Positions 983-33,047 are shown, numbered from the stretch's first letter. The stretch: DNA of 64,000 bases from Coprobacillus sp. CAG:605 (GCA_000433255.1 HF998235.1:13-64012); one strand, 5' to 3'. Made by a program: numbers and translations. The notes: generated by a model from the letters alone, not told the origin.

Positions 983-1016
983 AGTTATCTCTCCTTCATT
1001 ATAAAACTTAATGAAA

Positions 1017-1048
1017 CGGAAAAATGCCAGCATTTCGAATGCTGACAT
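1017..1048 (-). terminator. Hairpin plus short U-run between secA and the integrase start
   Basis: Stem cagcatt/aatgctg (1028-1034 / 1038-1044) extends to 1024-1048 with one mismatch. It is followed on the minus strand by TTTTCC. The U-tract is weak. Confidence 0.4.
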
Positions 1049-6115: not shown

Positions 6116-6166
6116 AATCCTCACCTTAAGTTAATATTATACATAAACTTGCCAAAAAAAGAAAGA

Positions 6167-6538
6167 TTAATTATCTTCCTTTATAACATTTTCCTCTGTA
6201 GAATCACTACTTGAACTACTTTTATCCTTATTTTCAACTCTTAGAATTAATTCTCCATCTTTAGTATACCCAAATTTTTCTCTCGCATATCTTGCCATAT
6301 AATCTGGATCTTGCAATTTAACAACTTCGCTTTCTAACTTTTTTTCTTCTAAAACTAAACTATCATATTTATTAGTAAGCTCGCCCTTTAGTCTTCTATT
6401 TTCAAAAATTTTTGTCCAATCATTAAACACACTATGAATAACCAAAACGATTAAAACAATTAAAATTACACTTAACCATTTCATTCTTCTTTTAGCTTTA
6501 TTAACTTTTTTCTTCTTAACTTGACCCTTATTCACCAT
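6167..6538 (-). CDS. divIC: Septum formation initiator DivIC/FtsB family
   Basis: N-terminal TM segment, a coiled coil, then DPDYMARYAREKFGYTKDGE. Follows yabP-yabQ as in B. subtilis. Confidence 0.8.
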   Translation of the reverse strand: MVNKGQVKKKKVNKAKRRMKWLSVILIVLIVLVIHSVFNDWTKIFENRRLKGELTNKYDSLVLEEKKLESEVVKLQDPDYMARYAREKFGYTKDGELILRVENKDKSSSSSDSTEENVIKEDN

Positions 6539-10755: not shown

Positions 10756-10769
10756 ATTTCCCAGGAAAT
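10756..10769. promoter_or_regulatory. Noc-binding-site-like palindrome, one mismatch (ATTTCCCAGGAAAT)
   Basis: 13/14 match to the B. subtilis NBS consensus ATTTCCCGGGAAAT. Intergenic between tatD and metG. Confidence 0.5.
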
Positions 10770-10806
10770 ATTTTGTCATACAAGCAAGAAAAATTTCACC
10801 ATAATT

Positions 10807-10820
10807 ATTTCCCGGGAAAT
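10807..10820. promoter_or_regulatory. Perfect Noc-binding-site palindrome ATTTCCCGGGAAAT
   Basis: 14/14 match to the NBS consensus, 2 nt from the metG stop and 37 bp from the previous site. Confidence 0.6.
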
Positions 10821-10822
10821 AA

Positions 10823-12352
10823 TTATTTTCTCTCGATTCTAGTAAATAAATGCTCAGGTGTTCCCAACTTAATTGAAGATTTTAATCCACCAAAAACTTT
10901 AGTACTTTCATAATCTCTTACATCAGTGTTTAATTGATTTAAAATCTTTTCACTAGTTTCTGGTAAAAATGGACTTAAATGAATAGCAATAATTCTAATA
11001 CTTTCTAACAAGTTATATAAAACAGTCCCAAGTCTAGCTTTCTTACTTTCATCTTTAGCCAAAATCCAAGGTGTTGTATCATCAATATACTTATTACACT
11101 TTCTAAGAACATCAAAAATTTCTTCTAAAGTCTCGCCGACTTTTAATTCGTTCATTTTCTCTTCTAACTTATTTGAAAGTCCAAGCACATTATTTATTAA
11201 ATCATTATCGATTTCTTCAGTACAATCTCCATTTTGAACAATTCCTTCAAAATACTTCATATTCATACTTATCGTACGATGTACCAAATTTCCTAAATTA
11301 TTAACCAAGTCCGCATTAATTCTATTAACTAAATTTTCTTCACTAAAAGTACCATCACTTCCAAATGGAACCTCTCTTAAAGCATAATATCTAACCGCAT
11401 CAACTCCATAATCACGAATATACTCTCTCGGATCTTTATAATTTCCTAAACTCTTACTAATCTTACCGCCATTGATAACTAACCAACCATGACCAAATAC
11501 TTGTTTAGGTAACTCCAAGTCTAAAGCCATTAACATTGCTGGCCAAATAATAGTATGAAATCTTACAATTTCCTTACCAACCAAATGCAAATCGCAAGGC
11601 CAATATTTTTTAAACTTCTCATCATTTTCAGTCATATAACCAAGCGAAGTAATATAGTTTGACAAAGCATCAACCCAAACATAAATAACATGCTTAGGGT
11701 CAAAAGTAACTGGAATACCCCAAGTAAATGAAGTTCTAGAAACACATAAATCATCTAATCCTGGTTTAATAAAGTTATTAATCATTTCATTCTTTCTTGA
11801 CTTTGGTAAGATAAAATCAGGATGTGACTCAATATACTCCACTAATCTATCTTGATATTTAGATAATCTAAAAAAGTATGCTTCCTCACTAACCTCTTTA
11901 ACTTCTCTCCCACAATCTGGACACATGCCATTAACTAACTGACTTTCAGTCCAAAATGATTCACAAGGAGTACAATATAATCCTTTATATTCTCCTTTAT
12001 AAATATCACCTTGGTCATACAACTTCTTAAATATCTTTTGTACTATTTCTTCATGTTTTTTATCGGTTGTTCTAATAAAATAATCATAACTAATATTTAA
12101 ACTTTTCCATAAATCTTTAGCGTTATTTACTATTTTATCTACATACTCTTTTGGCGTAACTCCCGCCTCACGAGCTTTATTTTCAATTTTTTGACCATGT
12201 TCATCAGTTCCCGTTTGAAAATAAACATCATATCCTAATAATCTCTTATATCTTGCAATCGAATCTGCAATAATTGTTGTATAACAATGTCCAATATGAA
12301 AATCTGCACTTGGATAATATATCGGTGTTGTTATATAAAATTTCTTTTCCAT
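10823..12352 (-). CDS. metG: Methionyl-tRNA synthetase
   Basis: HIGH motif (ADFHIGHCY), KMSKS motif (KISKSLGN) and a zinc knuckle (CTPCESF ... CPDCG). ATG 12352 is preceded by a GGAGGAG RBS. Confidence 0.95.
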   Translation of the reverse strand: MEKKFYITTPIYYPSADFHIGHCYTTIIADSIARYKRLLGYDVYFQTGTDEHGQKIENKAREAGVTPKEYVDKIVNNAKDLWKSLNISYDYFIRTTDKKHEEIVQKIFKKLYDQGDIYKGEYKGLYCTPCESFWTESQLVNGMCPDCGREVKEVSEEAYFFRLSKYQDRLVEYIESHPDFILPKSRKNEMINNFIKPGLDDLCVSRTSFTWGIPVTFDPKHVIYVWVDALSNYITSLGYMTENDEKFKKYWPCDLHLVGKEIVRFHTIIWPAMLMALDLELPKQVFGHGWLVINGGKISKSLGNYKDPREYIRDYGVDAVRYYALREVPFGSDGTFSEENLVNRINADLVNNLGNLVHRTISMNMKYFEGIVQNGDCTEEIDNDLINNVLGLSNKLEEKMNELKVGETLEEIFDVLRKCNKYIDDTTPWILAKDESKKARLGTVLYNLLESIRIIAIHLSPFLPETSEKILNQLNTDVRDYESTKVFGGLKSSIKLGTPEHLFTRIERK

Positions 12353-12374
12353 AACTATCTCCTCCATAGAAAAA

Positions 12375-12565
12375 AGCCATAACATAAGGACGAGAAAACC
12401 CGTGGTACCACCTTATTTTATGACTAATCATACACTTAAATATCTTAACGCGATTAACGATTTAGCTCCCAAATCCATACTCCCTATTCATTTTTATTTC
12501 TCTTCCACCATCAAGAAACTCTCTTTAAAAAACTCCTAGGTACCCATTTGTTCCTCACTAATTAA
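12375..12565 (-). promoter_or_regulatory. T-box leader (probable Met specifier AUG) controlling metG
   Basis: Minus strand contains the T-box sequence GGTGGTACCACGG, a terminator ending GGCTTTTTT just before the RBS, AGAGA and CGTTA boxes, and AAAATGAAT as a candidate specifier loop. Confidence 0.8.
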
Positions 12566-12581
12566 CCATAGTTTACCATTA

Positions 12582-13052
12582 TTAACATGAAATATCAAGT
12601 TTATTTGTAATCAAAATATTAAGTATTTGACCCACTATTTCATTACAACTACTATCACTAACTAAGATAATCCCTTCCACATTTGAATCAATTATCACTG
12701 GTCTTAAATCACAAGCACTACAAATCTTATCTTTTTCCCTCATTAAATCATATAGTGATAATCCAACCAATCTTTTAACATCTAAATCGGTAATCTCAGT
12801 ATTATTAAAAATAATTTTTTCCCTATTTGTCGCTAGTATTTTTACATGCATATTATCCACAAGCATTTTCAAAAGTCCAATCACATACTCATCATAATTC
12901 TTAATTGCTACCGCTTTAACTAACTTTATATAATTATCATCAATACTTATTTCTAAACTATCATCTTTCTTTATTGACAATCTCTTTCTTATATCTTTAG
13001 GGATTACAATACGTCCTAATTCATCTATTTTTTTAATCGAACCATTATTCAT
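12582..13052 (-). CDS. spoVT: AbrB-domain transcription regulator, SpoVT-like
   Basis: N-terminal KIDELGRIVIPKDIRKRLSIKKDDSLEI (SpoVT/AbrB swapped-hairpin) plus a C-terminal domain. Directly downstream of mfd as in B. subtilis. Confidence 0.65.
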   Translation of the reverse strand: MNNGSIKKIDELGRIVIPKDIRKRLSIKKDDSLEISIDDNYIKLVKAVAIKNYDEYVIGLLKMLVDNMHVKILATNREKIIFNNTEITDLDVKRLVGLSLYDLMREKDKICSACDLRPVIIDSNVEGIILVSDSSCNEIVGQILNILITNKLDISC

Positions 13053-13098
13053 TTCATAACCTCACTACCCTTATTTTATCCACAAGTATCTTTTTTAT

Positions 13099-13121
13099 AA
13101 CTAAAACAACAAAAAAGAGGC
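13099..13121 (-). terminator. Terminator after mfd
   Basis: Minus strand reads agaggc-tttg-gcctct followed by T6. Confidence 0.7.
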
Positions 13122-13130
13122 CAAAGCCTC

Positions 13131-16100
13131 TTAATTACTTAATTTATCCACTTCATCTTTTATTAAATTCAATAAATCTACCAAGTAATAGACAAAATGT
13201 TTATCTAAATTATTCACAGGTAAAGTAATATATACTTTATTTAATACTGAACGAAATTGAAACTTTCTTGAAATATTATAAGCTTGAATAAATAACTTAT
13301 CAAATTTTAAATTATGAACCAAAGTAGTTGGCAGTTCAATCTCCACTAAAGTACTATTCTGTACAACTTTTGTTATTCCTAGACTATTAGCTAGTTTTTC
13401 AAACCATTCTTCATACATATAAACTCTAATCTTTTCATCAATCTTACCAAATCTATCCTCAATTTCATGCTGAATGCTTTCTAATTTTTCATAACTATCA
13501 ATTTCATTAATCTTTTGATGAATTTCAATTTTTAAACTCTCATCACTTACATACTTATCACTAATATGAGTATCAACATTAATTAAAGCTTTATTACTAG
13601 TATCTTCTTTAGGTATTTCTTCCCCATGAATTTTTTTAATCTCTTCATCAACCATTTTCATATACAAATCTAGGCCAACCGCTGAAACAAATCCCGCTTG
13701 ATCACTACCCAAAATATCCCCAGCACCACGTAGCGACAAATCACGCATAGCAATACGATAACCACTACCTAACTCAGTAAACTCTTTAATAGCTTGTAAT
13801 CTCTTTATCGCAATATCATTTAACATCTTATTTTTATCATACATTAAATAAGCATAAGCAATTTTATTACTACGCCCAACACGACCACGAATTTGATACA
13901 ACTGACTTAAACCAAATCTGTCAGCATCAAATATTATCAATGTATTAGTATTAGGAATATCTATTCCAGTTTCAATAATCGTCGTACATAATAAAATATC
14001 ATACTTATAATTAATAAAATCATCCATTACATCTTCAATTTCACTTTTATTCATTCGACCATGAGCCGTTACAATCCTAGCTTCCGGAACTAACTTTTGC
14101 AATTCACTTCGTTTATTTTCTAAGCCATCAACATGATTATATAAAATAAATATTTGTCCTTTTCGCGCTAATTCCTTATATATAGCATCTTTTACAACCA
14201 TATCAGATTCCGCCATGACATAGGTTTGAACAGGATATCTATTAACCGGTGCCGTATCTATAATGGATAAATCTCTTAACCCTGACATCGCCATTTTCAA
14301 AGTTCTTGGAATTGGTGTTGCAGATAATGTTAAAACATTAACATCATTCTTATATTGTTTAATTCTTTCTTTATGTGTTACTCCAAAACGTTGTTCTTCA
14401 TCAACTATTAATAACCCTAAATTCTTATATTCAATGTCCTTACTAAGCAAACGATGCGTACCAAATACTATATCTATAGTTCCATTTTTTAAGCCTTCTA
14501 AAATTCTTTCCGTTTCTTTAGGAGTAGTAAATCTATTTAATAACGCTATTTCTACCGGAAAATTTTTAAATCTTTCCAAAGCATTTTCATATTGTTGCTT
14601 TGAAAGTATTGTTGTAGGACATAAATAAGATACTTGCATATTATTAACAACTGTTTTAAACATTGCTCTAAATGCTACTTCAGTCTTTCCAAAACCTACA
14701 TCTCCACATAATAATCTATCCATAGGAACATCTTTTTCTAAATCCTGATTAATATCTTTAAAAGCTTTTTCTTGGTCAGCCGTTGGAACATACTTAAAAT
14801 CAGCATCAAATAAATCTTCTATTGGATCACTTTTAAAAGCTGGCCCTTTTATCTTAGCACGCTCCGCATAAAGCTTAATAAGTTCCATAGAAATATCATG
14901 AACTTTTTTCTGCATTGCTCGTTTAGTCTTTTCCCAAGAGGTACTATTTAGCTTATTAATTTTAGGAACATCCCCATCTTTAGAAGAATACTTAAATATA
15001 TTACTAATCTTTTCTACAGGAACATAAACTTTATCATCACCATCATACTTTATTAGTAAGTAATCTTTTTTTATACCATGATTATCTAACGTAACAACAC
15101 CACTATAAATACCTATTCCATGAGCTTCATGAACGACATAATCACCAACTTCCAACTGGTCAAAATTATGTATTCTTTTACCAATTCGATAAGAATTTTT
15201 ATATTTAATTTCTTTATGATTTATTTTTTCAATATCAAATTCCGCTATTACACAGTAATTAAATATTTCAAAACCATTATCTATTTTCTTTGAAATAATA
15301 TTTATTTTATTAGTAATAATTTCATTTCCAGTGGTAATTCTTGCCGCGGGAAATATTTCTATTATATCATCAATTTCATTTTTATTAGATAAATAAAATA
15401 TAATAGTATTATTACTTTTTAATTTATTTTTTACATAATTTTCTAATAAATCAAAGTTAGAATTAAAATTTTCTATTTCTTTTGTTTGATAATGAAATTT
15501 ATTATCATTTAAAACCTCTAAACTATCCAAATAAATCCAGTTCGAAATATTTAACTCTTCCATTTCAAACATATATTTTTTATTCTCATTTAGCGATTGA
15601 TTATATTCCATTATCTCATCACAAAGTTTAGCATACCCTGCATCAATTTGCGATTTTTCAATCATAAATACAAAAGGCTTTCCTAAATAATCCAAGATTG
15701 AACTCTTATTTGCCGTTTCAATCTCGATATAAGGTAATATCGTAATCTTATCTATCTCTTTAATAGATAACTGATTATTCTCATCAAATACTCTTACTGA
15801 ATCAATTTCGTCACCAAAAAATTCAATTCTAACTGGATGCTCTTGCTCGATTATAAATAAATCAATTATAAAACCACGAACCGCATATTCACCAGTCGCT
15901 GCAACCATAGATTCCTTAGTATATCCAAACTCATCTAAAATTTGAATAAACTTATCTCTATTTATTTGCATCCCCTTCTTTAACTCAAATTGTGTCTTAT
16001 TAGCATATTTATAGTCAGGAAGATATCTTAAAAGTCCCATTAAATTCGTAACGACAATATGTTTTTTATTATCCTTTAATTGATTTAAAGTTTCCAAACG

Positions 16101-16358
16101 TTTAATTTTCAAATCAGGCGAAATCGCCACCGCTACTGAAGAAATAAAATCATCCATTGGAAATATTAAAACATCCTTATTTAAAGTACTTAGTAAATCA
16201 TAATATTGATTAGCTTCATATAAACTATTAGCTAAAACTAAAACGTTCTCATCATGAATTTCAAAATACTGATTAACGTAAAAAACGTTTAACTCTTTCG
16301 TTAAACCAATTACTTCACTATTATTAACATAATTATATAACTCATTTAAATAATTCAT
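13131..16358 (-). CDS. mfd: Transcription-repair coupling factor Mfd
   Basis: 1075 aa with a CarD-like domain (VGDYVVHEAHGIG) and helicase motifs (GDVGFGKTEVA, DEEQRFG, TATPIPRTL, QLYQIRGRVGR). Confidence 0.96.
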   Translation of the reverse strand: MNYLNELYNYVNNSEVIGLTKELNVFYVNQYFEIHDENVLVLANSLYEANQYYDLLSTLNKDVLIFPMDDFISSVAVAISPDLKIKRLETLNQLKDNKKHIVVTNLMGLLRYLPDYKYANKTQFELKKGMQINRDKFIQILDEFGYTKESMVAATGEYAVRGFIIDLFIIEQEHPVRIEFFGDEIDSVRVFDENNQLSIKEIDKITILPYIEIETANKSSILDYLGKPFVFMIEKSQIDAGYAKLCDEIMEYNQSLNENKKYMFEMEELNISNWIYLDSLEVLNDNKFHYQTKEIENFNSNFDLLENYVKNKLKSNNTIIFYLSNKNEIDDIIEIFPAARITTGNEIITNKINIISKKIDNGFEIFNYCVIAEFDIEKINHKEIKYKNSYRIGKRIHNFDQLEVGDYVVHEAHGIGIYSGVVTLDNHGIKKDYLLIKYDGDDKVYVPVEKISNIFKYSSKDGDVPKINKLNSTSWEKTKRAMQKKVHDISMELIKLYAERAKIKGPAFKSDPIEDLFDADFKYVPTADQEKAFKDINQDLEKDVPMDRLLCGDVGFGKTEVAFRAMFKTVVNNMQVSYLCPTTILSKQQYENALERFKNFPVEIALLNRFTTPKETERILEGLKNGTIDIVFGTHRLLSKDIEYKNLGLLIVDEEQRFGVTHKERIKQYKNDVNVLTLSATPIPRTLKMAMSGLRDLSIIDTAPVNRYPVQTYVMAESDMVVKDAIYKELARKGQIFILYNHVDGLENKRSELQKLVPEARIVTAHGRMNKSEIEDVMDDFINYKYDILLCTTIIETGIDIPNTNTLIIFDADRFGLSQLYQIRGRVGRSNKIAYAYLMYDKNKMLNDIAIKRLQAIKEFTELGSGYRIAMRDLSLRGAGDILGSDQAGFVSAVGLDLYMKMVDEEIKKIHGEEIPKEDTSNKALINVDTHISDKYVSDESLKIEIHQKINEIDSYEKLESIQHEIEDRFGKIDEKIRVYMYEEWFEKLANSLGITKVVQNSTLVEIELPTTLVHNLKFDKLFIQAYNISRKFQFRSVLNKVYITLPVNNLDKHFVYYLVDLLNLIKDEVDKLSN

Positions 16359-16367
16359 ACCAATTAC

Positions 16368-16919
16368 CTATTTCTTATTATACTTTTGCATACAATACTC
16401 TATATCATGATTAGCAAAATCTACTATGATGTCTTTAAATATAGGAGCCATTTCATTAAATTGTTCTAAATTTTCTTTACTAATTCTTCCTAAAACATAA
16501 TCTTTAGTATCCATACTTCTATCATGCGCAATACCAATTTTCAACCGAGGAACCATATCAGTTCCTAAAGAAGCAATTATTGACTTCATTCCATTATGTC
16601 CGCCCGCACTACTTTTATATTTTAACCGATATTTTAGAAATGATAAGTCTAAATCATCTTGAATAATCAAAATATCTTTATTTTCAATTTTATAATAATT
16701 AGCAAATTTGGCAACTGCATCTCCTGAAAGATTAACGTACGTTAAAGGCTTTATAAAAATAACTTTTTCACCATTAATATTTTCTTCACAACATAAAGCA
16801 TTGAACTTTTTGACAAATTTTTTATTTCCCGGGAAATAATCTAACACCATAAACCCAATATTATGTCTTGTACATTCATACTCTTTACCATAATTTCCAA
16901 TACCAACAATTAACTTCAT
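16368..16919 (-). CDS. pth: Peptidyl-tRNA hydrolase
   Basis: MKLIVGIGNYGKEYECTRHNIGF and GGHNGMKSI motifs. Confidence 0.93.
   Translation of the reverse strand: MKLIVGIGNYGKEYECTRHNIGFMVLDYFPGNKKFVKKFNALCCEENINGEKVIFIKPLTYVNLSGDAVAKFANYYKIENKDILIIQDDLDLSFLKYRLKYKSSAGGHNGMKSIIASLGTDMVPRLKIGIAHDRSMDTKDYVLGRISKENLEQFNEMAPIFKDIIVDFANHDIEYCMQKYNKK
16824..16837. promoter_or_regulatory. Perfect Noc-binding-site palindrome inside pth
   Basis: ATTTCCCGGGAAAT. It is translated as YFPGN in pth. Confidence 0.6.
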
Positions 16920-16932
16920 TTTATATCACATC

Positions 16933-17637
16933 CTAATCAAAAATTCTTTTATAACTCCTATGCTCTAATACATTTACTGGCGGATTAACAATCAAGCCAT
17001 CAGAACCATTTTTTGTCGCTTTAATAAGAACCATTATAGCACTCTTTTGATATCCTGCATAAACAAATTGTAACTTTTTAACACTAAATTTATATTTAGT
17101 TAAAATCCCTATAAGTTCCATTAATCTTTCTGGACGATGCACTAAATACAAAGGTGCTTTATTTTTTAAAATATATTTAGCCGTCATTACAATTTCTTCT
17201 AAATTAGTTTTTATTTCATGACGAGCTATAGCTAAACTTTCTTCTGTATTAACATATGACCCTTTATTTAACTTAAAATAAGGCGGATTACAAGTAACCG
17301 CATCAACAGATTCGGGTAAAATATATTCCAAGCTCTCATTAAGATTAGCATTAATAATTTTAACTTGTTTTTCTAAATTATTAAGTATAACCGAATTATA
17401 TGCTAATTGAAAAACATTTTTTTGTAATTCAAAACCAATTATTTTACTATTAACTCTAGTTGAAAGTATCAAAGGCACAGCCCCATTACCACAACAAAAA
17501 TCAACTATTGTATTTAATCCGGCCTTATTTTCTACAAATTCGGCAAGTAATATTGAGTCTAAAGAAAATTTAAATAATTTCTCATCTTGATATATTTCTA
17601 ATCCATAATCAAATAAATCATTCTTTACTACTTTCAT
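16933..17637 (-). CDS. Class I SAM-dependent N6-adenine methyltransferase, TrmN6/YabB-like
   Basis: SAM-binding DFCCGNGAVP and the motif IV CNPPYF. Confidence 0.7.
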   Translation of the reverse strand: MKVVKNDLFDYGLEIYQDEKLFKFSLDSILLAEFVENKAGLNTIVDFCCGNGAVPLILSTRVNSKIIGFELQKNVFQLAYNSVILNNLEKQVKIINANLNESLEYILPESVDAVTCNPPYFKLNKGSYVNTEESLAIARHEIKTNLEEIVMTAKYILKNKAPLYLVHRPERLMELIGILTKYKFSVKKLQFVYAGYQKSAIMVLIKATKNGSDGLIVNPPVNVLEHRSYKRIFD

Positions 17638-18418
17638 TATTATCTAGTTCAATCTCCTTAACTTCATTTCCAATTAAAACTTTATATTTTCTATTTAATA
17701 TATCAACAGATATAACTTTGCCTTCACCTTGCTCTAAAGTAATCTTCTTACCAACAGTAGGCATCCCGACACGACAACAACTATATTGTTCATCTTCGTA
17801 AGTTAAACAACATAATAATCTACCACAACAACCATTAATTTTAGAAGGATTCAAAGCAATATTTTGATTCTTAGCCATATTCATACTTATAGAATCAATA
17901 TGATTTAAAAAACCAGCACAACACAGTCTTCTCCCACATACACCATATCCATCAATACTTTTAGCTTTATCACGAGCCCCAATTTGTCTTAATTCAATTC
18001 TTGTTTTAAATTTACCAGCTATTCTTTTCGCAAGTTCACGAAAATCAATACGTTCATCAGCCAAGAAATTTAATAATAATTGTTTTCTATCAAAGTTAAA
18101 GCTCGAATCCATAAAACGCATATTCAAGTTTAATTCATTAGCAACTTCTTTAGCATAATTCATAGCTTCTTCTTGTTCCTTCAATAAACTTAAATGTTTC
18201 TTATAATCATTTTTGGTTGCAATACGAATTATTGGACTAATTTCCTCAATCGAAGTTTTTAAATCTGTTTCATTAACTTTCATTACTACTTTACCAAATT
18301 GTTCTCCTCGTTCTGTTCGAACAATAACCGTTACATTAATTGGACATTCTAATTTTTCTGCATTAAAATAATAAATTTTTCCATTTGGTTTAAATTCTAC
18401 ACCATAAATATTACGCAT
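17618..18418 (-). CDS. ricT: PSP1-domain protein RicT/YaaT (stage 0 sporulation)
   Basis: PSP1-like N-terminus and the Cys-rich C-terminus CGRRLCCAGFL ... CCGRLLCCLTYE. Follows holB as in B. subtilis. Confidence 0.85.
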   Translation of the reverse strand: MRNIYGVEFKPNGKIYYFNAEKLECPINVTVIVRTERGEQFGKVVMKVNETDLKTSIEEISPIIRIATKNDYKKHLSLLKEQEEAMNYAKEVANELNLNMRFMDSSFNFDRKQLLLNFLADERIDFRELAKRIAGKFKTRIELRQIGARDKAKSIDGYGVCGRRLCCAGFLNHIDSISMNMAKNQNIALNPSKINGCCGRLLCCLTYEDEQYSCCRVGMPTVGKKITLEQGEGKVISVDILNRKYKVLIGNEVKEIELDNNESSKE

Positions 18419-19244
18419 TAGCTCTCCTCATTTCTATGACAAACTGATCTAATAATAGCTCTAAACTTACATTTGCTTGATTTAATGTTATAGTTTTTTC
18501 TATAATTGCAATTTGCTTTTTTAATTGTTCAAGAGAAATTCCTGATAAAACGTCATTTTTTTTATTTCCCGGGAAATATTTTTCACTAATTGCACTCATA
18601 TACATATCAAAAATAACAGTTAACAAAGAATTAATTTCATTTCTCGTACCAAAAGACGGTAAAATAAATTCTTTATTTACTATCAAATCACAATTTTCCA
18701 AAATTCTTCTTACATATTCATTTGCATATTCAATTATTTTCTCATCAACTACACTCTTAGTCGCATAATCGATTTTCATAATTTGACAACGACTCTTTAT
18801 CGTATCAATTACTCTCTCTTTATTAGTAGTTATAAAGAACCCTAAAATATTATCTTCCGGTTCTTCTAAAAATTTTAACATACAGTTTGAAGCAGAATCA
18901 TTCATCATATCAGCATCTTTTATTATATATATATTATACCTTGAATACACAGGTTTAGTACTAAACTTTTCTTGCAACTCATTAAGTTGCTGTTTTTTTA
19001 TACTCATACCATCTGGCTCAACAATTATAATACTAGGTAAATTCAATAAATCAATTAACTTACATAAATTGCATTGTTCAGTACAATCACTCTTATACTT
19101 ATCAGGACAATTAACAATCTTTAATAGTTGTTTTATATCATTCAAACATAATTCATAATTATTTGTTTCAATTAAAAAAGCATGAGAAAGCTTATTATCC
19201 TCATATTTCTTTTTCAATTCATTAAATTTATCTGCTTCAAACAT
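18411..19244 (-). CDS. holB: DNA polymerase III delta-prime subunit HolB
   Basis: HAFLIE start, LKFLEEPE and IKSRCQ motifs. ATG 19244 is preceded by GGTGG. Confidence 0.85.
   Translation of the reverse strand: MFEADKFNELKKKYEDNKLSHAFLIETNNYELCLNDIKQLLKIVNCPDKYKSDCTEQCNLCKLIDLLNLPSIIIVEPDGMSIKKQQLNELQEKFSTKPVYSRYNIYIIKDADMMNDSASNCMLKFLEEPEDNILGFFITTNKERVIDTIKSRCQIMKIDYATKSVVDEKIIEYANEYVRRILENCDLIVNKEFILPSFGTRNEINSLLTVIFDMYMSAISEKYFPGNKKNDVLSGISLEQLKKQIAIIEKTITLNQANVSLELLLDQFVIEMRRANA
18564..18577. promoter_or_regulatory. Perfect Noc-binding-site palindrome inside holB
   Basis: ATTTCCCGGGAAAT. It is translated as YFPGN in holB. Confidence 0.6.
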
Positions 19245-19260
19245 AACTACCACCAATCAA

Positions 19261-19398
19261 TCATATTATCAATAATTTTATAATAACTAGTGCTAATACA
19301 CCAAAACCACCTAAAAAATAAGTAATTATTATATTTATAATATTAATAGGAATAATGACGTTAACATACTTTAACATAACATTTAAACCATATAACAT
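19261..19398 (-). CDS. Small hydrophobic BofA-like protein (absent from the ORF track)
   Basis: Manual translation gives MLYGLNVMLKYVNVIIPINIINIIITYFLGGFGVLALVIIKLLII. The IPIN-x8-FLGxxG-x-ALV pattern matches the C-terminal half of B. subtilis BofA as I recall it. It occupies the recR-bofA position. The frame stays open upstream to 19452 without a canonical start. Confidence 0.4.
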   Translation of the reverse strand: MLYGLNVMLKYVNVIIPINIINIIITYFLGGFGVLALVIIKLLII

Positions 19399-19489
19399 TA
19401 AAAAGGAAAAAACTAATTTTCTTATAACAAAATATACTTTTTTTATAGTTAATCACCAACCAATATAATTATATTAGGCTTACTATAAT

Positions 19490-20089
19490 TTATGATATAT
19501 CTTTTCTATCATTTAAGGCATTAAGAAGTGTAATCTCATCCAAATAATCAATATCAACACCCATTGGAATACCATAAGACAAACGAGATATTTTAACCCC
19601 TTTATCTTCTAATATCTTCTTTATATATAAAGTAGTCGTTTCTCCTTCAATAGACGGCTTCAAAGCTATAATAACTTCAGGATTTTCCAAAGTTTTTACT
19701 CTATCAATTAGTGAAGATAAATTAATATCTTCAGGCCCTCTATCATCAATTGGTGAAATAAGCCCATCTAAAACATGATACACCCCATTATACTTACCAG
19801 CCTTTTCAAAAGCAAAAACGCCTTTAAAGTCCTCTAAAACACATATTACGTTATGATTTCTCGAAATATCTCGGCAAACATAACATACATCTTCATCTGT
19901 TAAACCACCACAAATACTACATCTCTTTAATTTCTTTTTGGCCGTATTTAAGGCTAAAGAAAAATCAGCAACTTCCTCTAAAGACATATCCAAAATTGCC
20001 AGTGCCATACGTTCAGCACTCTTTTCGCCAATACCAGGCAATTTCTTAAAGTATTCTATTAATTCTAATAAATTAGCAGGATATATCAT
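19490..20089 (-). CDS. recR: Recombination protein RecR
   Basis: LPGIGEKSAERMA (HhH), a C4 zinc finger (CSICGG ... CYVC) and a Toprim domain. Confidence 0.95.
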   Translation of the reverse strand: MIYPANLLELIEYFKKLPGIGEKSAERMALAILDMSLEEVADFSLALNTAKKKLKRCSICGGLTDEDVCYVCRDISRNHNVICVLEDFKGVFAFEKAGKYNGVYHVLDGLISPIDDRGPEDINLSSLIDRVKTLENPEVIIALKPSIEGETTTLYIKKILEDKGVKISRLSYGIPMGVDIDYLDEITLLNALNDRKDIS

Positions 20090-20385
20090 TAAAATAATCC
20101 GTTAAGAGCACTTCCATATTGACCCATAGCTTTTTCCATAGCTTGATCAACATTCTTAATAGCATCATTTGTGGCAATCATAATCATATCTTGAAGTACT
20201 TCAATATCATCCTTAGTTAAATCTTCATTTTTTATTACTACTTCAGTTACTTCTTTATTACCATTCATTGTAACTTCAACTAATTCAGACTTTCCTGTAA
20301 ATAATTGTTTACCCACTTCCTCTTTTTTCTTCATTATATCTCTTTGCATTCTTTGTGCTTGAGCCATTAAATTTTGCATATTCAT
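20089..20385 (-). CDS. ybaB: Nucleoid-associated protein YbaB/EbfC
   Basis: 98 aa, MQNLMAQAQRMQ ..., located between dnaX and recR. Confidence 0.9.
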   Translation of the reverse strand: MNMQNLMAQAQRMQRDIMKKKEEVGKQLFTGKSELVEVTMNGNKEVTEVVIKNEDLTKDDIEVLQDMIMIATNDAIKNVDQAMEKAMGQYGSALNGLF

Positions 20386-20402
20386 AAATTTATTCTCCTC
20401 TT

Positions 20403-22052
20403 CTATTTTGTTTCATAATTATTTCCAAAAATTTCATTAGCTAGCTTCTCCAACTCACTAGTATTTTCTTCAATAATTATGGAATCATCCATCATAGTAT
20501 ATTTATAACCACTTTTTAAGTTAGTAATATACTTATTACGTGCCTCTTCCCATACTTTTGGTGAAATAGACACCAATTTATATTCTCTACCAAAGAATAT
20601 TTTAAAATCTTTTTCTACTGATTCAATATTCTCATTAATTAAATCATTAGTATTATTTATCTTATTAACCAATACAGCATAATTATTAGATGCTGCAACA
20701 AGCTCAGTATCTACTATATATGAAAGTAACAACTTATTCGCATTACTTTCATAAATAACAAAATCGTCCCATTTTTCTTTTAGCTCTAACAAATACTTTT
20801 TTTGAGCTCCTACAAAAGTATTATTTATTCTGGCATCCACATTAAAGTGAGCCTTTTTTTCATTAACTATTGGAGCCTCATTATTTATTTCTGGTTCTTT
20901 ACTTCCTTTTATTTCCTGGGAAATATTTTCTTTAGTTGGTCTTTCTTCGACTTTTTGCTCTATTTTCAAAGTAGAACCACTCTTTTTTTCCTCAACTGGA
21001 GCTTTAACATCCTTATTTGAAATTTTATTTCCCGGGAAATATTTTAAAATTACAATTTCTAAAAAATTATATGGAGCGATATTACTTTTAATTTCTTGAA
21101 GTACTCTATTTAATTCAAAAACCATACTATAAAGCATATCAAAATCAAGAATACCATTATAATTATCTAATTTTATATCTATTAAGATTGATTTTATTCT
21201 ATCTATCAGCTTTTCAATTAATATTCTTACATCGATACCATTATTTTTAAATTCTTTTAATAGTTCTAAAGTGCCTTTAACATCCCCAGAAGTAAATACA
21301 TCCATAAATTCTTTTACTTTTTTATTTGATATACTTCCAAAATTGCTTGTAACATCATCTACATCTATTTTAGTATTACGTGAAGAAATTTGGTCTAAAA
21401 TACTTAATGCATCACGCATACCACCATTACTCATATAAGCTATTTCTTTTAAAGCGGCATCCGTTATATCAATTTTTTCTTCGTTACAAACATAATTTAA
21501 ACGATTAACTATATCATCAACTACAATTGGTTTAAAATCAAATCTTTGACAACGCGATAAAACTGTAATTGGAACACTTTGAATATCAGTTGTTGCTAAT
21601 ATAAATACTACATTAGATGGTGGTTCTTCCAATGTTAATAATAAAGCATTAAAAGCACTAGTAGATAGCATATGAAATTCATCAACTATATATACTTTAT
21701 ACTTTGAATTTGCTGGAGCTAAACGAACATTGTTAATTATTTCTCTTATTTCATCTACTCCATTATTAGAAGCAGCATCTATCTCAATTATATCTGGATT
21801 TGTTCCAAAACTTTTACACATTTCACACTCATTACAAGGATTTCCATCTTTTGGATTTAAGCAATTTAAAGCCTTAGCAAATATTTTAGCAGAACTTGTT
21901 TTACCGGTACCACGTGGGCCAGTAAAAATATAAGCATGCGAAATATGTTCATTTTTTATAGCATTTTTTAATAATGTTTTTGTATATTCTTGACCTACTA
22001 AAGAATCAAAATTCTGTGGTCTATATTTTCGATAAAGAACTTTATATTCCAT
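20403..22052 (-). CDS. dnaX: DNA polymerase III gamma/tau subunit DnaX
   Basis: YRKYRPQNF, GPRGTGKTS, zinc module CNECEMC, DEFHMLS and SRCQRFDF motifs. Confidence 0.96.
   Translation of the reverse strand: MEYKVLYRKYRPQNFDSLVGQEYTKTLLKNAIKNEHISHAYIFTGPRGTGKTSSAKIFAKALNCLNPKDGNPCNECEMCKSFGTNPDIIEIDAASNNGVDEIREIINNVRLAPANSKYKVYIVDEFHMLSTSAFNALLLTLEEPPSNVVFILATTDIQSVPITVLSRCQRFDFKPIVVDDIVNRLNYVCNEEKIDITDAALKEIAYMSNGGMRDALSILDQISSRNTKIDVDDVTSNFGSISNKKVKEFMDVFTSGDVKGTLELLKEFKNNGIDVRILIEKLIDRIKSILIDIKLDNYNGILDFDMLYSMVFELNRVLQEIKSNIAPYNFLEIVILKYFPGNKISNKDVKAPVEEKKSGSTLKIEQKVEERPTKENISQEIKGSKEPEINNEAPIVNEKKAHFNVDARINNTFVGAQKKYLLELKEKWDDFVIYESNANKLLLSYIVDTELVAASNNYAVLVNKINNTNDLINENIESVEKDFKIFFGREYKLVSISPKVWEEARNKYITNLKSGYKYTMMDDSIIIEENTSELEKLANEIFGNNYETK
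20911..20924. promoter_or_regulatory. Noc-binding-site-like palindrome, one mismatch, inside dnaX
   Basis: ATTTCCTGGGAAAT. It has the same TTTT / TATTTT flanks as the perfect sites. Confidence 0.45.
21027..21040. promoter_or_regulatory. Perfect Noc-binding-site palindrome inside dnaX
   Basis: ATTTCCCGGGAAAT. It is translated as YFPGN in the dnaX linker. Confidence 0.6.
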
Positions 22053-22521: not shown

Positions 22522-22569
22522 AGTTATACTCCAAACTAGCTTGCTACATATGTATGCACAAATTCCAAT

Positions 22570-22648
22570 AAAAAAGTGCACACAAACAGGGATAGTTATG
22601 GCTGCTGTATTCCTACTCTGACCAGGTTCCTATATAATTGTTGCACGC
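22570..22648 (-). ncRNA. ffs: Signal recognition particle RNA, short (4.5S-like) form
   Basis: Minus strand reads GUGCAACAA ... CCUGGUCAGAGUAGGAAUACAGCAGCC ... UUUGUGUGCAC-UUUUUU. This gives the domain IV motif (GGUCAG ... GGAA tetraloop ... AGCAGC), a closing 5'/3' helix GUGCA/UGCAC and a U6 terminator. TTGATT and TATAAT promoter elements lie just upstream at about 22653-22685. The ends are approximate. Confidence 0.6.
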
Positions 22649-22850
22649 ATATATTATATAACATAATTTCTTATAAAATCAAGGAAAAAATGGCATTTTT
22701 AGTAAATTTCAAGTATTGTTCGCCATATATTTGTTCGCTAAACTAATCAAATTTGATATTTTTCCAATATCATTAAATATATATGAATTATGTTAATTTG
22801 ATATCAAAAATGCCTGTTGATAAATACTTGAAATGTGAATATTTTTTACT

Positions 22851-23576
22851 ATGTTTCACGTGAAACATAGTAATTATCTTTTTAAAACGATATATCAGTC
22901 CATTTAAGTTAAAATTATATTTATGATTATCTTTTATTTAATGTATTATTCTCAATGTTTCACGTGAAACATTGGACTTTTGTATCTTTAACTTAAAACA
23001 TGGTCAAATAACTACCTAAATATTTATAAAATAAAGTAAAAACCCTATCTCATTGACTTTAATTCCATAAAATTAAAACAATTATCAACTATGTTTCACG
23101 TGAAACATTAGAAAAAGTAAAATAAATTTAGTAATGAAACTCATATAAAATATAGAAATATTAAAAATAATTATTTATCACGTATAAAAAATAAAACTTC
23201 ATTAGTGTATTTTAAAAATTTGAAAAAAGTTTAATTGAAATTTTAAATTAATTAACAATGTTTCACGTGAAACATATATACTTTGATTAATTTTTTTAAA
23301 AGATAAATTAAAAATTATATAAAATAGATATGTAGATTAATTATTGCTGCTGTTTACTTATAAACACCCAATGTTTCACGTGAAACATTGAGTTGACTTT
23401 TAAAATTATTGCTGGACTTATTATAATTTTAATATTTTTTATTTATTAAATAATTAATGCTTATTAAAATAAATATTTATCCACTATGTTTCACGTGAAA
23501 CATATAAAAAAATACATATCTATTTCTAAATATGTATTTCTATTTAAATAAGTTAACAATGTTTCACGTGAAACAT
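22851..23576. repeat. Array of seven identical 18-bp palindromes ATGTTTCACGTGAAACAT (each a perfect parS core)
   Basis: Copies at 22851-22868, 22955-22972, 23091-23108, 23258-23275, 23371-23388, 23486-23503 and 23559-23576. Spacers are 86, 118, 149, 95, 97 and 55 bp and are unrelated to each other. No ORF of 60 aa or more lies in 22622-23588. Confidence 0.9.
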
Positions 23577-23588
23577 TGTTAATAATTT

Positions 23589-26054
23589 TTATTGATTGTT
23601 ATTTTCTAATTCAGTTGTAGAACTTTCATTAAGTACCTCATCTGGTTCGGCCTTAATTAAACTGATTGTGGATACTTTTTGGCCATCTTTCAAGTTAATT
23701 AAACGAACTCCCTGAGTAACCCTGCCTAAAACTGATATTTGAGCTAATGGCATACGCATAACCATACCAGAATCAGTAATAATTACTACATCGGTACTAT
23801 CATCTACCACTTTAAATGTGCATAACTTTCCGTTTTTATCCGTTACATTTAAGGCTTTTACTCCCTTAGATCCACGTCTTGTTTCGCGGAAGTCTTGAAC
23901 ATTTGTTTGCTTGCCGTAACCATTTTCCGTTACTATCAAAATGTTATTATCGTCACTAGTAACCTCAGCACCAATACAGTAAGCATCTTCACTTAAGTTA
24001 ATACCCTTAACACCTGAAGCAGTACGTCCCATTTCTCTAATTTCAGATTCATTAAATTTAACCATACGGCCATCACTTGAACCTAACAAAATATTATCGC
24101 TACCCGTTGTTTTTCTAACCGCAATTAACTCATCATTATCTCTTAAAGTAATACAAATTTTACCATTTTGACGTATGCTTTCAAATTCAGCTAAAGAGGT
24201 CTTTTTAATTATACCACCTTTTGTAGCAAACATCAAGTACTTATTTTCATCATCTCGAGAAACTTTAATAACACTATTTACTAATTCATCCTTCTCAATT
24301 TGTAATAGATTAATTATTGGTAAGCCCTTAGATTGTCTACTAAACTGAGGAATCTCGTAGCCTTTTAACCTGTATACCTTACCCTTATTAGTAAAGAATA
24401 ATGCATAATCATGTGTGGATAAATTTATTAAATGTTCAACATTATCTTCTTCATTAGTTGTCATTCCCTTTACACCTACACCACCACGGTTTTGCGACTT
24501 AAATGTATCGGCAGTTGTTCTCTTAATATATCCTTTGCTTGTTAATGCTAACATAACGTTTTCTTCTGGTATTAATGATTCATCTTCGATATATTCAATA
24601 GCAGTCATATCAATATCAGTACGTCTTTCATCAGCATATTTTGCTTTAATTTCTAATAATTCTTCTTTAATAATGCTATAAATCTTTTCATCACTAGCTA
24701 AAATACCATTTAATTTATCAATTAAAGCCAATAACTCATTCAATTCATCTTCTATCTTAGAACGTTCTAAACCAGTCAAACGACGTAATTTTAATTCTAA
24801 AATAGCATCAGCTTGAATATCATCAAGACCAAATCTACTCATTAACTTTTCTTTAGCTAATGCATCAGTTTCAGCATTTCTTATGATGTTGATAACTTCA
24901 TCTAAATTATCTAAAGCAATCTTATATCCTTCTAAAATATGAACTCTCTTTTCAGCCTTATCTAATTCAAACTTAGTTCTTCTGTAGATAACTTCCTTTT
25001 GAAATTCAATATATTTTGAAATAATTTCATATAAGTTCAAAGTTTTTGGCTTACCTTGGTCTAACATCAAGAAAATAATACCATAAGTTGTTTGTAATTG
25101 TGTAAATTTATATAAATTATTTAATACAACATTTGCATTTGCTTCTTTTTTTAAATGAACTACTAAACGAATACCATCTAATGTAGATTCATCATGTAAA
25201 TCAGCAATTCCTTCTAAAACTTTATCTCTTACTAACTCTGCAATACGAGTTCTTAAAGACATTTTAGTTACTTGATAAGGAATATCTGTGAATACAATTT
25301 GTTGTTTTCCATGATTTTCTTGTATTTCAGCATGAGCTCTCAAAGTAATAGTACCTCTACCAGTCTCATAAGCTTGTTTAATACCCTTGTTTCCTAAAAT
25401 AGATGCTCCAGTAGGAAAATCTGGTCCTTTAATATACTTCATCAACTCTTCAACAGTAATATCATGATTATCAATATAAGCAACACAACCATCAATTACT
25501 TCCCCTAAATTATGAGGAGGAATATTAGTTGCCATACCTACAGCAATACCCATAGTACCATTTACTAATATATTAGGAAATCTTGAAGGCAATACTTTAG
25601 GTTCTTTCTTAGTTCCATCAAAGTTTGGATCAAAATCAACAGTATCTTTATAAATATCTCTTAATAACTCCAAAGAAATCTTTGATAATCTTGCTTCTGT
25701 ATAACGATATGCTGCCGCACCAAAGCCATCTATTGAACCAAAATTACCATGCCCATCAACTAGTGGATGACGATAACTAAAATCTTGAGCCATTCTTACC
25801 ATAGCATCATATACTGATGTATCACCATGTGGATGATATTTACCTAAAACCGCACCTACAGTAGTAGCACTCTTACGAAAAGCCTTATCTGGTGTTAAAC
25901 CATCTTCATACATTGTGTATAAAATACGACGATGTACAGGTTTTAAACCATCTCTTAAATCTGGTAATGCACGCGCAATAATAACATCCATTGAATATTC
26001 TAAGAAGGAACTCTTCATTATATCAACAACATTTTTATTTTGTTTATTATCCAT
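23589..26054 (-). CDS. gyrA: DNA gyrase subunit A
   Basis: [12 protein letters not shown], the [11 protein letters not shown] active-site Tyr region and C-terminal beta-pinwheel repeats. Confidence 0.98.
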
Positions 26055-29151: not shown

Positions 29152-29637
29152 TTATACCACATTATCTTTCTTTTTGGCTGGCTTTTTTGCTTTTTTGACG
29201 ATTTTTCTTTCATTTAAAACATAATTTAATCTAGTTGCTCGCAAAATCAAGTTTGTAAAAACATAATATGAAATATTTACTGAAATTTTTGACATATTTT
29301 TAAATATTATTTCTGTATTTTTATCAATTTTTCGATAATCTTTAACGTTGTTTAAAGAAATCCAAGAACAATTCTTACTCCGAGGTGAAGATGTTGGAAA
29401 AAATATAATGTCTTTACTTTCTTCAATAATAATTGGTGATTTAGTAGAATACCCCGTTAATATCCGAGTCCCCCTTCTACGCCCTTCAAACGTACTACCA
29501 AAATATTCACAACTTTTCTTAATAATATTAAGTGTATTATCTTTTATTAAATAAGATTTATTCCCCTCATATATTTTAGTATTTGGATAATTGCTTATAA
29601 TTGCCAATGTATCTTCATTAATCTCATAATTTTTCAT
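29152..29637 (-). CDS. ComK-family transcription factor homologue
   Basis: SCEYFGSTFEGRRRGT ... KSPIIIEES ... IIFFPTSSPRSKNCSWISL aligns by eye with B. subtilis ComK (SCRFFGSSYAGRKAGT ... KPPIMVDPS ... IFLFPTLSSTRPQCGWIS). Confidence 0.7.
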   Translation of the reverse strand: MKNYEINEDTLAIISNYPNTKIYEGNKSYLIKDNTLNIIKKSCEYFGSTFEGRRRGTRILTGYSTKSPIIIEESKDIIFFPTSSPRSKNCSWISLNNVKDYRKIDKNTEIIFKNMSKISVNISYYVFTNLILRATRLNYVLNERKIVKKAKKPAKKKDNVV

Positions 29638-31039: not shown

Positions 31040-32410
31040 TTAGATTTTTGCTTTAATTTCATTGACAATTTCTTGTAATTTTTTATTGTCTTTAAGGTCT
31101 TCTGTGATTTTATCAACAGCATGAATTACGGTAGAATGATCTCTTCCCCCAAATTCTAAGCCAATTCTTGGAAATGATTCATCAGTAAGCATTCTAGCTA
31201 AGTACATTGCAAGCATTCTAGGATATGCAATGTTCTTGGACTTTTTCTTTCCTTTTAGAACATCAATTGTGAATCCATAATAGTCTGCAACTGCCTTTTG
31301 AACCATAGAAATATCGTTATTTGAATAAATATTTTTACTTATATAATCCCCTAAAGCTTCTTGGGCAAAATCTAAATCTATCTTAGTTGGGGTATAAACA
31401 GCAACATAAGCCGCTAATCTATTAATTGCCCCCTCAATTTCCCTTACATCCGTATCGCATGAGTTCGCAATGTACATAATAACATCATCACTTATCATTT
31501 TTGCAATACTAAGATACTTAATTTTATCTTTAATTATTCTTACTCTTAGGTCTAAATCCGGTGGATAAATATCTACGGGAAGTCCCCATGCAAACCTGCT
31601 TCTAAGACGTTCTTCTAATAATTTTAAGTCTTCTGGCGATCTATCAGATGTAATAATAATTTGCTTATTGTGACTGTGTAGTTCATTAAATGTATGAAAG
31701 AACCCTTGCTGTGTTTTTTCAGCTCCTACTAAAAACTGGATATCATCTACCAACAAAACATCTACATCTCGATATTTATTTTTAAAGTAATCAGCTCTTT
31801 CAAATGACGATTCTGCCCCATTAGTACTGGCAATACTTGTATAATCATCCTTAAAATTCTCACTAGTTGTGTATAAAACTCTTAAATTACTATTTTCTAC
31901 TATGTAATTTCCTATTGCATGCATTAAGTGGGTCTTTCCTAGCCCACTTTTACCATAAATAAACAAAGGATTATATATTTTTCCTGGTTGTTGTGCTACA
32001 GCGATTGCTGCAGTTTTGGCAAATTTGTTGGTATCTCCAGTAACATAGTTATCAAAAGTAAACTCTTTCTTTAAATTTGTAATAAACTCTGTATTATTAT
32101 CTTTTTTAACTTCCAAAGTCCTGTTGTTGATAATTTCCAAGTTATCCACAGTCTCATCTTCTAGAACAAAAGAAATATCATAAGTAACGTTAGTTAATTC
32201 AGTCAAAGCGTCTTCCAAAAGCTGATACCAGCTAGTTTCGAGCACATTTTTATGCACTGCCATTGGTACTTGAATGACGATTTTGTTCTTTAAAGTATCT
32301 ATTTCATGTAATTTTAATGGTTTAAACCATGTATTAAATGTGATTGGATTTATTTTTTGTTGTAGCAACGATAGAAATTTGCTCCATAAATCCTGATTGT
32401 CCAAAATCAT
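31040..32410 (-). CDS. dnaA: Chromosomal replication initiator DnaA
   Basis: NPLFIYGKSGLGKTHL, LLVDDIQFL and the C-terminal HTH region GGRDHSTVIHA. Start chosen at ATG 32410 (MILDNQDLW). The RBS spacing is poor, so GTG 32434 remains possible. Confidence 0.96.
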   Translation of the reverse strand: MILDNQDLWSKFLSLLQQKINPITFNTWFKPLKLHEIDTLKNKIVIQVPMAVHKNVLETSWYQLLEDALTELTNVTYDISFVLEDETVDNLEIINNRTLEVKKDNNTEFITNLKKEFTFDNYVTGDTNKFAKTAAIAVAQQPGKIYNPLFIYGKSGLGKTHLMHAIGNYIVENSNLRVLYTTSENFKDDYTSIASTNGAESSFERADYFKNKYRDVDVLLVDDIQFLVGAEKTQQGFFHTFNELHSHNKQIIITSDRSPEDLKLLEERLRSRFAWGLPVDIYPPDLDLRVRIIKDKIKYLSIAKMISDDVIMYIANSCDTDVREIEGAINRLAAYVAVYTPTKIDLDFAQEALGDYISKNIYSNNDISMVQKAVADYYGFTIDVLKGKKKSKNIAYPRMLAMYLARMLTDESFPRIGLEFGGRDHSTVIHAVDKITEDLKDNKKLQEIVNEIKAKI

Positions 32411-32478
32411 CACCCCACTAACCAAATCTATCACAAGTATTGTACTCTATTTTTTAAATTTTGGGAAGTTTTTTTTAG

Positions 32479-32778
32479 TTATTCACAAGAAATTCACAGG
32501 TTATCAACATTTTATCAACATTTTTTTATCGGTGTATGCTGGTCTCTTATTAGTTATCAACATTATCAACAATTTATTTATCAACAATGTGGATAAATAT
32601 TCAAAAGTTATCCACAACTCCTGTGGATAACTGATATTTTATATTTTTTTTGGCTGAAATACGCCAAAAAAATGCTTGTGAATAATGTGGATAACTATAA
32701 AAAATGGCACTTTTTGACATAAAAGTTGTGCACAACTAAAAAGTTATCCACAGGCGATTTTGATTTTCTTGTTGATAA
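32479..32778. promoter_or_regulatory. oriC part 1 (upstream of dnaA): at least 13 DnaA boxes
   Basis: Consensus boxes (TTATCCACA / TGTGGATAA) at 32588, 32608, 32622, 32686 and 32744. TTATCAACA variants at 32501, 32512, 32554, 32563, 32578 and 32770 (complement). TTATTCACA variants at 32479 and 32677 (complement). Confidence 0.85.
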
Positions 32779-33030: not shown

Positions 33031-33047
33031 CTAATTAGGTGAATTTT

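Follow-up and report, generated by a model that had tools for sequence, protein, structure and literature searches.

Close to the replication origin of Coprobacillus sp. CAG:605, within a single AT-rich intergenic gap, lie seven identical and perfect copies of parS, the palindromic site bound by the partition protein ParB. We analysed this array in a stretch of 64,000 nucleotides (GCA_000433255.1, HF998235.1:13-64012), hereafter called the window. Given its identity with parS, its origin context, its syntenic conservation, the selection that bears on the sites only and the extension of each site to 18 bp, the array most probably serves, as far as sequence can tell, as the chromosomal centromere (parS cluster) near the origin in an uncultured, low-GC and spore-forming member of the class Bacilli. 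The array and its sites are as follows.

22851..23576 (726 bp, no strand): parS array, seven perfect 18-bp palindromes, by exact match
22851..22868: parS copy 1 (ATGTTTCACGTGAAACAT)
22955..22972: parS copy 2
23091..23108: parS copy 3
23258..23275: parS copy 4
23371..23388: parS copy 5
23486..23503: parS copy 6
23559..23576: parS copy 7, inside a 30-bp palindrome (23553-23582)

A first-pass annotation of this DNA had reported seven identical copies of ATGTTTCACGTGAAACAT, and an exact search of the window returned these seven at the same coordinates; the 18-mer never occurred in 100 dinucleotide-preserving shuffles. All seven copies match the parS consensus TGTTNCACGTGAAACA at 16 of 16 positions, where chance predicts none, and no other parS-like site with up to three mismatches to TGTTNCACGTGAAACA is present in the 64 kb. 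The spacers between copies (86, 118, 149, 95, 97 and 55 bp) have the lengths given earlier and are indeed unrelated and AT-rich, with a GC content of 12-22% compared to 29% for the whole window; their comparison with one another revealed no real similarity, just short AT-rich chance matches. The intervals are irregular, and the earlier description of a nucleosome-like spacing does not apply to them. Two bases out from the 18-mer, every copy has a C on its left side and four of the seven have a G on their right, resulting in a 22-bp consensus, C-W-A-[16-mer]-T-W-G.

The array and the origin of replication are placed by the following features.

22656..23588 (933 bp, 19% GC): AT-rich intergenic gap without open reading frames (ORFs), holding the array
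22560..22655, minus strand: signal recognition particle (SRP) RNA gene, ffs, left neighbour of the array (Rfam RF00169, 52.5 bits)
23589..26054, minus strand: gyrA, right neighbour, transcribed toward the array
31040..32434, minus strand: dnaA
30934..31025 and 32479..32778: bipartite oriC, two clusters of DnaA boxes flanking dnaA

The largest ORF lying entirely within the gap has 26 amino acids, in agreement with the annotation, which had described a gap of about 940 bp between gyrA and the SRP RNA gene with no ORF of 60 amino acids or more. An Rfam search of the gap returned nothing, its sole match being the adjoining SRP RNA, whose promoter-like site (22682-22653) is separated from the left end of the array by about 170 bp. 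The distance from the array to the DnaA boxes of oriC is 7.4-9.9 kb, and the earlier figure of about 9 kb from dnaA was a fair one. We thus retain from the annotation its central statement, that canonical and perfect parS sites occupy a dedicated noncoding locus near the origin.

Gene order on the minus strand is dnaA-dnaN-ComK-like-recF-gyrB-gyrA-[array]-SRP RNA-tadA-like-dnaX-ybaB-recR-holB-ricT-pth-mfd-spoVT. On the plus strand, starting at 33039, come rnpA, yidC, jag, mnmE, mnmG, rsmG and a ParB-family gene (39117-40499), followed by the PBP1A gene (on the minus strand), argS, rpoE, prfA, prmC and spoIIR. The window is the replication-origin region of a spore-forming, low-GC (29%) member of the Bacillota. 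The same species, with an identical array, is represented by at least 24 metagenome contigs; in the six of these that were compared, the number of sites (seven), the spacings and the sequence of the array region are the same.

Comparison with other species allowed us to see what selection has preserved. A scan for pairs of perfect 16-mers separated by 85-115 bp, run on one genome from each GTDB species, yielded at least 120 loci, and relatives were recognised by tblastn with the window proteins at the array loci listed. In 19 GTDB species among them the array occupies the same position as in the window, gyrA-[array]-SRP RNA-tadA-dnaX-ybaB-recR, with GyrA proteins 62-79% identical to that of the window. 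Of the 120 metagenome array loci listed (L159-L278, described below), 116 share this synteny. These species are low-GC metagenome-assembled genomes from the gut, labelled as uncultured Bacilli, 'Tenericutes', 'Mycoplasma', 'Clostridium' or Candidatus Onthocola. The annotation had proposed comparing copy numbers in the gyrA-tadA region of related genomes: at this same locus, the 19 relatives have 3 to 11 parS sites, differing in number and spacing, and the distance from the gyrA stop codon to the first site ranges from about 10 to 150 bp. The clade median is four sites per complete gyrA-tadA gap, which puts the seven of the window near the upper end; one relative has ten sites, located between tadA and dnaX. 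True tandem repeats are found in some relatives, with a 125-bp unit repeated six times in one (L045) and a 55-bp unit repeated ten times in another (L077).

The flanks of the array can be aligned across these species (65-73% nucleotide identity for the 3' end of gyrA, 70-87% for the SRP RNA), but between the spacers of the window and those of the relatives there is no positional homology, scattered short AT-rich matches alone being found. Perfect sites and alignable flanks around spacers that cannot be aligned mean that selection acts on the sites and not on the region. Throughout a broad clade, then, strong purifying selection is directed at the parS sites themselves, in a syntenic position that does not change. 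Just outside the 16-mer, A or T is found in 172 of 172 half-sites of the relatives, compared to 63% in 22 other low-GC genomes, and in 673 of 680 half-sites of the clade's metagenome loci. Given this retention, the 18-bp site is a clade-wide property under selection. For the identity of the seven 18-mers the annotation had offered either selection or recent homogenisation; the former stands and the latter does not.

Could the palindromes act chiefly as RNA or DNA hairpins (gyrA terminators, cruciforms or an operator of gyrA and ffs), their match to parS being incidental? Several copies are flagged as terminator-like hairpins, with five such flags compared to 0.4 expected, and copy 7 lies 13 bp past the gyrA stop codon, within the 30-bp palindrome of which it is the core. 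Yet one terminator would suffice where seven copies are present, and the U-tracts are weak. The exact 16/16 parS match and its 18-bp version persist across species sharing 62-79% GyrA identity, while the distance of the first site from the gyrA stop is variable, as seen above. We therefore find such a purely structural role highly improbable. As a separate observation, the palindrome around copy 7, which begins 7 bp past the stop codon of gyrA and, on the minus (gyrA) strand, has the score of a terminator-like hairpin, may have a double use as the terminator of gyrA.

The annotation had also compared the array to a plasmid-style centromere. In its strong form this would be a helically phased nucleoprotein complex, with ParB dimers on one face of the DNA and wrapping or pairing of the array, which would then exceed a mere series of clamp-loading sites acting independently. 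The spacings between site centres in the window (104, 136, 167, 113, 115 and 73 bp) do fit a period of 10.40 bp, with a Rayleigh R of 0.955 and a p-value of about 0.002 after scanning periods of 10-11 bp, in a test that was post hoc. The closest relative (L107) gives R = 0.62 (p = 0.58), however, the pooled spacings of the 19 relatives do not exceed R = 0.19, and the 106 dereplicated parS-parS spacings of the clade do not exceed R = 0.16. The window moreover has neither a tandem repeat unit nor an adjacent parAB operon, so that the plasmid-style label itself is not appropriate here. A phased complex of this kind is very unlikely in our opinion. The 10.40-bp phasing, not being reproduced in relatives, is probably either due to chance or specific to this species.

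How tight arrays of this sort are distributed can be judged from the 120 genome loci listed. The maximum number of perfect parS sites per 1 kb is two at 45 loci, three at 36, four at 17, five at 9, six at 7, seven at 4 and nine at 2; at least 22 of the loci listed thus have five or more perfect sites per kb, and at least six have seven or more. They span Bacillota, Actinomycetota, Alphaproteobacteria, Gammaproteobacteria, Bdellovibrionales, Spirochaetota, Paceibacterota and others. Arrays that do not belong to the Bacilli clade mostly lie near mnmG-rsmG-parB, and ParB genes adjoin arrays in other phyla. The parS sites of a genome are normally clustered within 5-40 kb, scattering being peculiar to a few lineages that include Bacilli (PMC8357415). 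In the literature searched we found no account of natural sub-kilobase parS arrays in Bacillota, nor of parS sites interleaved with Noc-binding sites. The array is not an oddity: tight parS arrays are widespread rather than rare, and for this reason the array alone is of moderate interest.

Arrays of the same 16-mer, with up to eight sites, are also borne by contigs classed as viral or mobile, and a phage-type integrase gene is present at the left end of the window (8-1048). Both would fit with a dispersed repeat of the repetitive extragenic palindrome (REP) or miniature inverted-repeat transposable element (MITE) type, or with the relic centromere of an integrated plasmid or integrative and conjugative element. 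Against this, no copy exists outside the array in the 64 kb or in a 10-kb extension to the right, where we looked for the dispersal that the annotation had named as fatal to its reading, and the array sits between core genes whose synteny is kept in the clade, with no mobile genes nearby. A repeat or mobile origin is barely credible, and was rejected on the basis of copy distribution and synteny. One viral-classed contig of low GC content (L027, 30%) has eight perfect parS sites of the chromosomal type at 6137-6445, mostly spaced by 38 bp. This contig is possibly from a phage-plasmid, or else from a misclassified element, that uses a host-type centromere.

In the centromere reading, each 18-bp palindrome would nucleate one dimer of a canonical parS-specific ParB (of the R173/G201 type). 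The dimer, bound to cytidine triphosphate (CTP), would close into a clamp, leave the site and slide onto neighbouring DNA. Seven perfect sites in 726 bp would multiply the rate of ParB loading at one point 7-10 kb from oriC, and the resulting dense ParB zone would recruit SMC-ScpAB and mark the origin for segregation. By analogy with established ParB biology we infer ParB binding, CTP-dependent loading and SMC recruitment at this array. Spreading of ParB would probably be limited by transcription of gyrBA on the right and by the promoter-like site of the SRP RNA gene on the left. With loading confined to one compact point, the SMC collisions described for parS sites that lie far apart (PMC8357415) would also be avoided. 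As no Soj was seen, the parS system of this species may be independent of ParA, like that of Streptococcus pneumoniae.

Which protein would bind the array? The window has one candidate.

39117..40499, plus strand: sole ParB-family gene of the window, directly after rsmG, 460 amino acids, ParB_N and HTH_ParB domains

The product has a GERR CTP motif and the residues Q173, K179, N184 and R201 at the specificity positions. It aligns to the structures of Noc with 199 bits (7NG0/7NFU) and to that of Spo0J with 185 bits (6SDK), and residue-by-residue structure alignments show the Noc pattern at the specificity positions. It has a linker of roughly 200 amino acids, rich in N, P and T, and a Noc-like C-terminus. 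The best 120 database matches, mostly 419-516 amino acids long, form a family that shares the long N/P/T-rich linker and in which 119 members have the QKNR residues and one has QKSR; in 118 of these 120 only 16 residues precede the PNRFQPR motif, compared to about 40 in Bacillus subtilis Noc. With so short an N-terminus, the protein has neither the membrane-targeting helix of Noc nor a ParA-stimulating peptide. The N-terminal amphipathic helix that targets Noc to the membrane (PMC8429893) is thus a Noc character that this protein lacks.

Jalal et al. found R173 and G201 to be invariant in ParB orthologues, and in their deep mutational scanning the parS-specific variants always had R173, variants of dual specificity had mostly T or S at position 201, and Q173 and R201 with a permissive lysine conferred specificity for Noc-binding sites (NBS) (PMC7383237). 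On the strength of its Noc specificity residues and of the NBS present in the window itself, the product of 39117-40499 is a Noc-type paralogue, predicted to bind NBS rather than parS. A ParB-family gene adjoining rsmG must not be taken by default for the gene of the parS-binding ParB.

Several results weigh against the centromere reading and bear on the annotation's own condition that a parS-specific ParB be encoded. Neither the window, nor a further 10 kb beyond its right end, nor the DNA around the origins of two relatives yielded a ParB of the R173/G201 type, and the deviant Walker-A motif of Soj/ParA is absent from all six frames of the window. NCBIfam and Pfam scans of window ORFs of at least 80 amino acids, except those nested in longer ORFs, detected no further ParB domain and no Soj. 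Searches of the window with tblastn gave no parS-type ParB with the Spo0J and Noc sequences of the PDB, and no Soj with an approximate Soj query. In the two relatives the Noc-type gene has the same neighbours, rsmG and the PBP1A gene, with no soj-spo0J, and no parS-type ParB or Soj gene stands beside the arrays of this clade among the 240 genome and metagenome array loci listed. The gene of the cognate ParB would thus lie in another part of the genome, an inference that is the main weakness of our case. The grounds are that parS arrays are present throughout the clade and that parS and NBS remain two distinct, perfect motifs. Such an arrangement would have a parallel in Staphylococcus aureus, where noc lies next to gidB and parB far away.

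The sites expected for a Noc-type protein are present to the left of the array.

10756..21040: cluster of six NBS, 1.8-12 kb left of the array

The NBS motif ATTTCCCGGGAAAT occurs without mismatch at 10807, 16824, 18564 and 21027, and with a single mismatch at 10756 and 20911; these four perfect and two one-mismatch sites compare with 0.18 expected in the window. Two of them fall in the 87-bp gap between tatD and metG, and the others within pth, holB and dnaX. To the right of the array there are no NBS, neither in the 40 kb of the window nor in the next 10 kb. Under uniform placement, the chance of such a left-only distribution is about 0.001 for the window and, as a rough estimate with relatives pooled, about 2e-6. 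Among the loci compared, NBS are specific to the clade, whose loci hold 23 of them over 200 kb, compared to none over the 728 kb of the other 100 genome loci.

In many relatives the NBS lie inside the array itself (L045, L082, L091, L092, L144, L088 and L159-L278). The tandem array of L045 (2264-2962) is a case in point, each of its six 125-bp units holding one NBS and one parS. A metagenome scan for NBS within 5-35 bp of a perfect parS gave at least 120 loci (L159-L278). All but two of the 120 listed are of low GC content (about 0.2-0.3), 116 contain gyrA, tadA or dnaX, and none contains a ParB-family or Soj gene. In the spacing statistics, which cover these loci and the 19 syntenic genome loci, gaps were counted once per sequence cluster (94-113 clusters). 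The gaps between adjacent NBS and parS are most often near 11 or 21 bp and least often 14-19 or 25-26 bp, and such mixed neighbours can stand 7-13 bp apart. Distances between NBS and parS centres recur with a period of some 10.5-10.75 bp (R = 0.36), with a nominal Rayleigh p-value of about 1e-15 that overstates independence, the clusters being still phylogenetically related, and the mean phase is near half a turn. No phasing was seen between neighbouring NBS (n = 33). A periodic pattern of this sort is hard to explain by inheritance alone.

An alternative is that the Noc-type QKNR protein is the only ParB-family member of the clade and binds both the parS array and the NBS, through dual or shifted specificity. 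It would account for the lack of another ParB-family gene in the origin regions of the window species and two relatives, for the failure to find a ParB of the RxxG type in any region inspected and for the physical interleaving of parS and NBS in many relatives. It conflicts with the residue rules of PMC7383237, by which Q173, R201 and lysine specify NBS while parS-specific variants keep R173, and the best 120 family matches are all QKNR or QKSR, as noted above. The two motifs, moreover, remain sharply distinct and each perfect, phasing is confined to mixed NBS-parS neighbours, which argues for two proteins, and the inspected share of the genome is small. We consider a single protein for both motifs unlikely. 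The coexistence of perfect parS and perfect NBS in one clade implies, as judged from the motifs, two specific binding proteins.

If a parS-specific ParB acts at the centromere, what would the Noc-type protein do there? It is conceivable, although we hold the idea with more doubt than confidence, that in a large clade of uncultured low-GC gut and rumen Bacilli the array locus serves as a joint loading platform for two paralogous CTP-dependent clamps, ParB at the 18-bp parS sites and a repurposed, Noc-derived QKNR protein at the NBS. This suggestion draws on the site statistics of relatives and not on the window. The QKNR protein, now without the membrane-targeting N-terminus and with a long disordered linker acquired in addition, would have shifted from genome-wide nucleoid occlusion to a function at the centromere or origin. 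Centre distances between NBS and parS of about 26, 36, 47 and 58 bp, near half-integral numbers of helical turns, would place the two proteins in a fixed rotational phase, from which it would follow that the array is shared by both at once, each constraining the other. In the variant seen in the window species, the NBS would then have shifted to a place just beyond the parS array.

Some other features of the window were recorded. A ComK-family gene of 161 amino acids (29152-29637, minus strand) lies between dnaN and recF, where yaaA/remB is usual, and is kept at this position in three relatives (L092, L155 and L157). The integrase gene at the left edge is on the minus strand; two long metagenome contigs of the species stop within about 1.3 kb of it, and this breaking of assemblies points to a repeat or to an island that varies between strains. 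To the left of oriC the GC skew is strongly negative (about -0.3 to -0.6), and on the right arm (32001-64000) it is near zero or slightly negative, not clearly positive, so that the two arms are asymmetric.

Models of segregation and SMC loading have been built on few organisms, with parS sites that are single, loosely clustered over kilobases or scattered. The array described here provides a natural test case for the relation between the number of loading sites and the flux of ParB and SMC, and for asking if the SMC collisions discussed for B. subtilis are avoided when loading takes place at one point. If the NBS-parS pattern and the helix-less Noc-type protein mean what we suggest, this would be the first indication of ParB and Noc paralogues acting together at a centromere.

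How does the array compare with systems already described? The sopC centromere of plasmid F consists of 12 tandem 43-bp repeats. Plasmid centromeres of this type (for a discussion of sopC see PMC3597684) resemble the window in having many identical palindromes for a ParB-family protein in less than 1 kb. The spacers of the window, however, are unrelated and unequal and so form no tandem repeat, the sites follow the chromosomal consensus, and the array has no parAB operon beside it and belongs to core chromosomal synteny; head-to-tail repeats that include the spacer occur in some relatives only (L045 and L077).

B. subtilis shares with the window the consensus TGTTNCACGTGAAACA, the phylum and a similar gene order around the origin. 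Its eight origin-domain parS sites are dispersed across some 0.75 Mb, most of them within genes and many imperfect (PMC8357415), and rsmG is followed there by noc-soj-spo0J, whereas a Noc-type gene alone follows it here. S. pneumoniae has four parS sites and no parA, its ParB-parS system working without ParA (PMC7022226). The window is similar in that no Soj/ParA is found near the origin, and parS would probably serve mainly for ParB-dependent SMC loading; in S. pneumoniae, however, four dispersed origin sites go with a linked parB, while the window has its sites in one array and the presumed parB would be unlinked. With the Noc-NBS system of Bacillota (PMC7383237, PMC8429893) the window has in common the Noc residues, a Noc-like C-terminus, the position after rsmG and perfect NBS. 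The protein differs from B. subtilis Noc by the lack of an N-terminal extension and by its low-complexity linker, and the NBS, not dispersed over the DNA sampled, are clustered beside the array or, in relatives, within it.

The closest counterparts are the origin-proximal clusters bound by ParB in Pseudomonas aeruginosa (parS1-4, PMC4368675), Caulobacter and Corynebacterium, where several copies of the same 16-bp palindrome lie near oriC. The presumed role, ParB-CTP loading and SMC entry, would be the same. The array of the window is 10-50 times more compact, with seven perfect sites in 0.73 kb and in one gap; it has a site of 18 bp throughout the clade and adjoins gyrA and ffs instead of parAB, with no ParB or ParA gene linked to it. 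Compaction, an intergenic position between gyrA and ffs, the 18-bp site and the absence of a linked parB are what sets the array apart from the chromosomal clusters described so far, and the relatives differ from these further by their interleaved and phased NBS.

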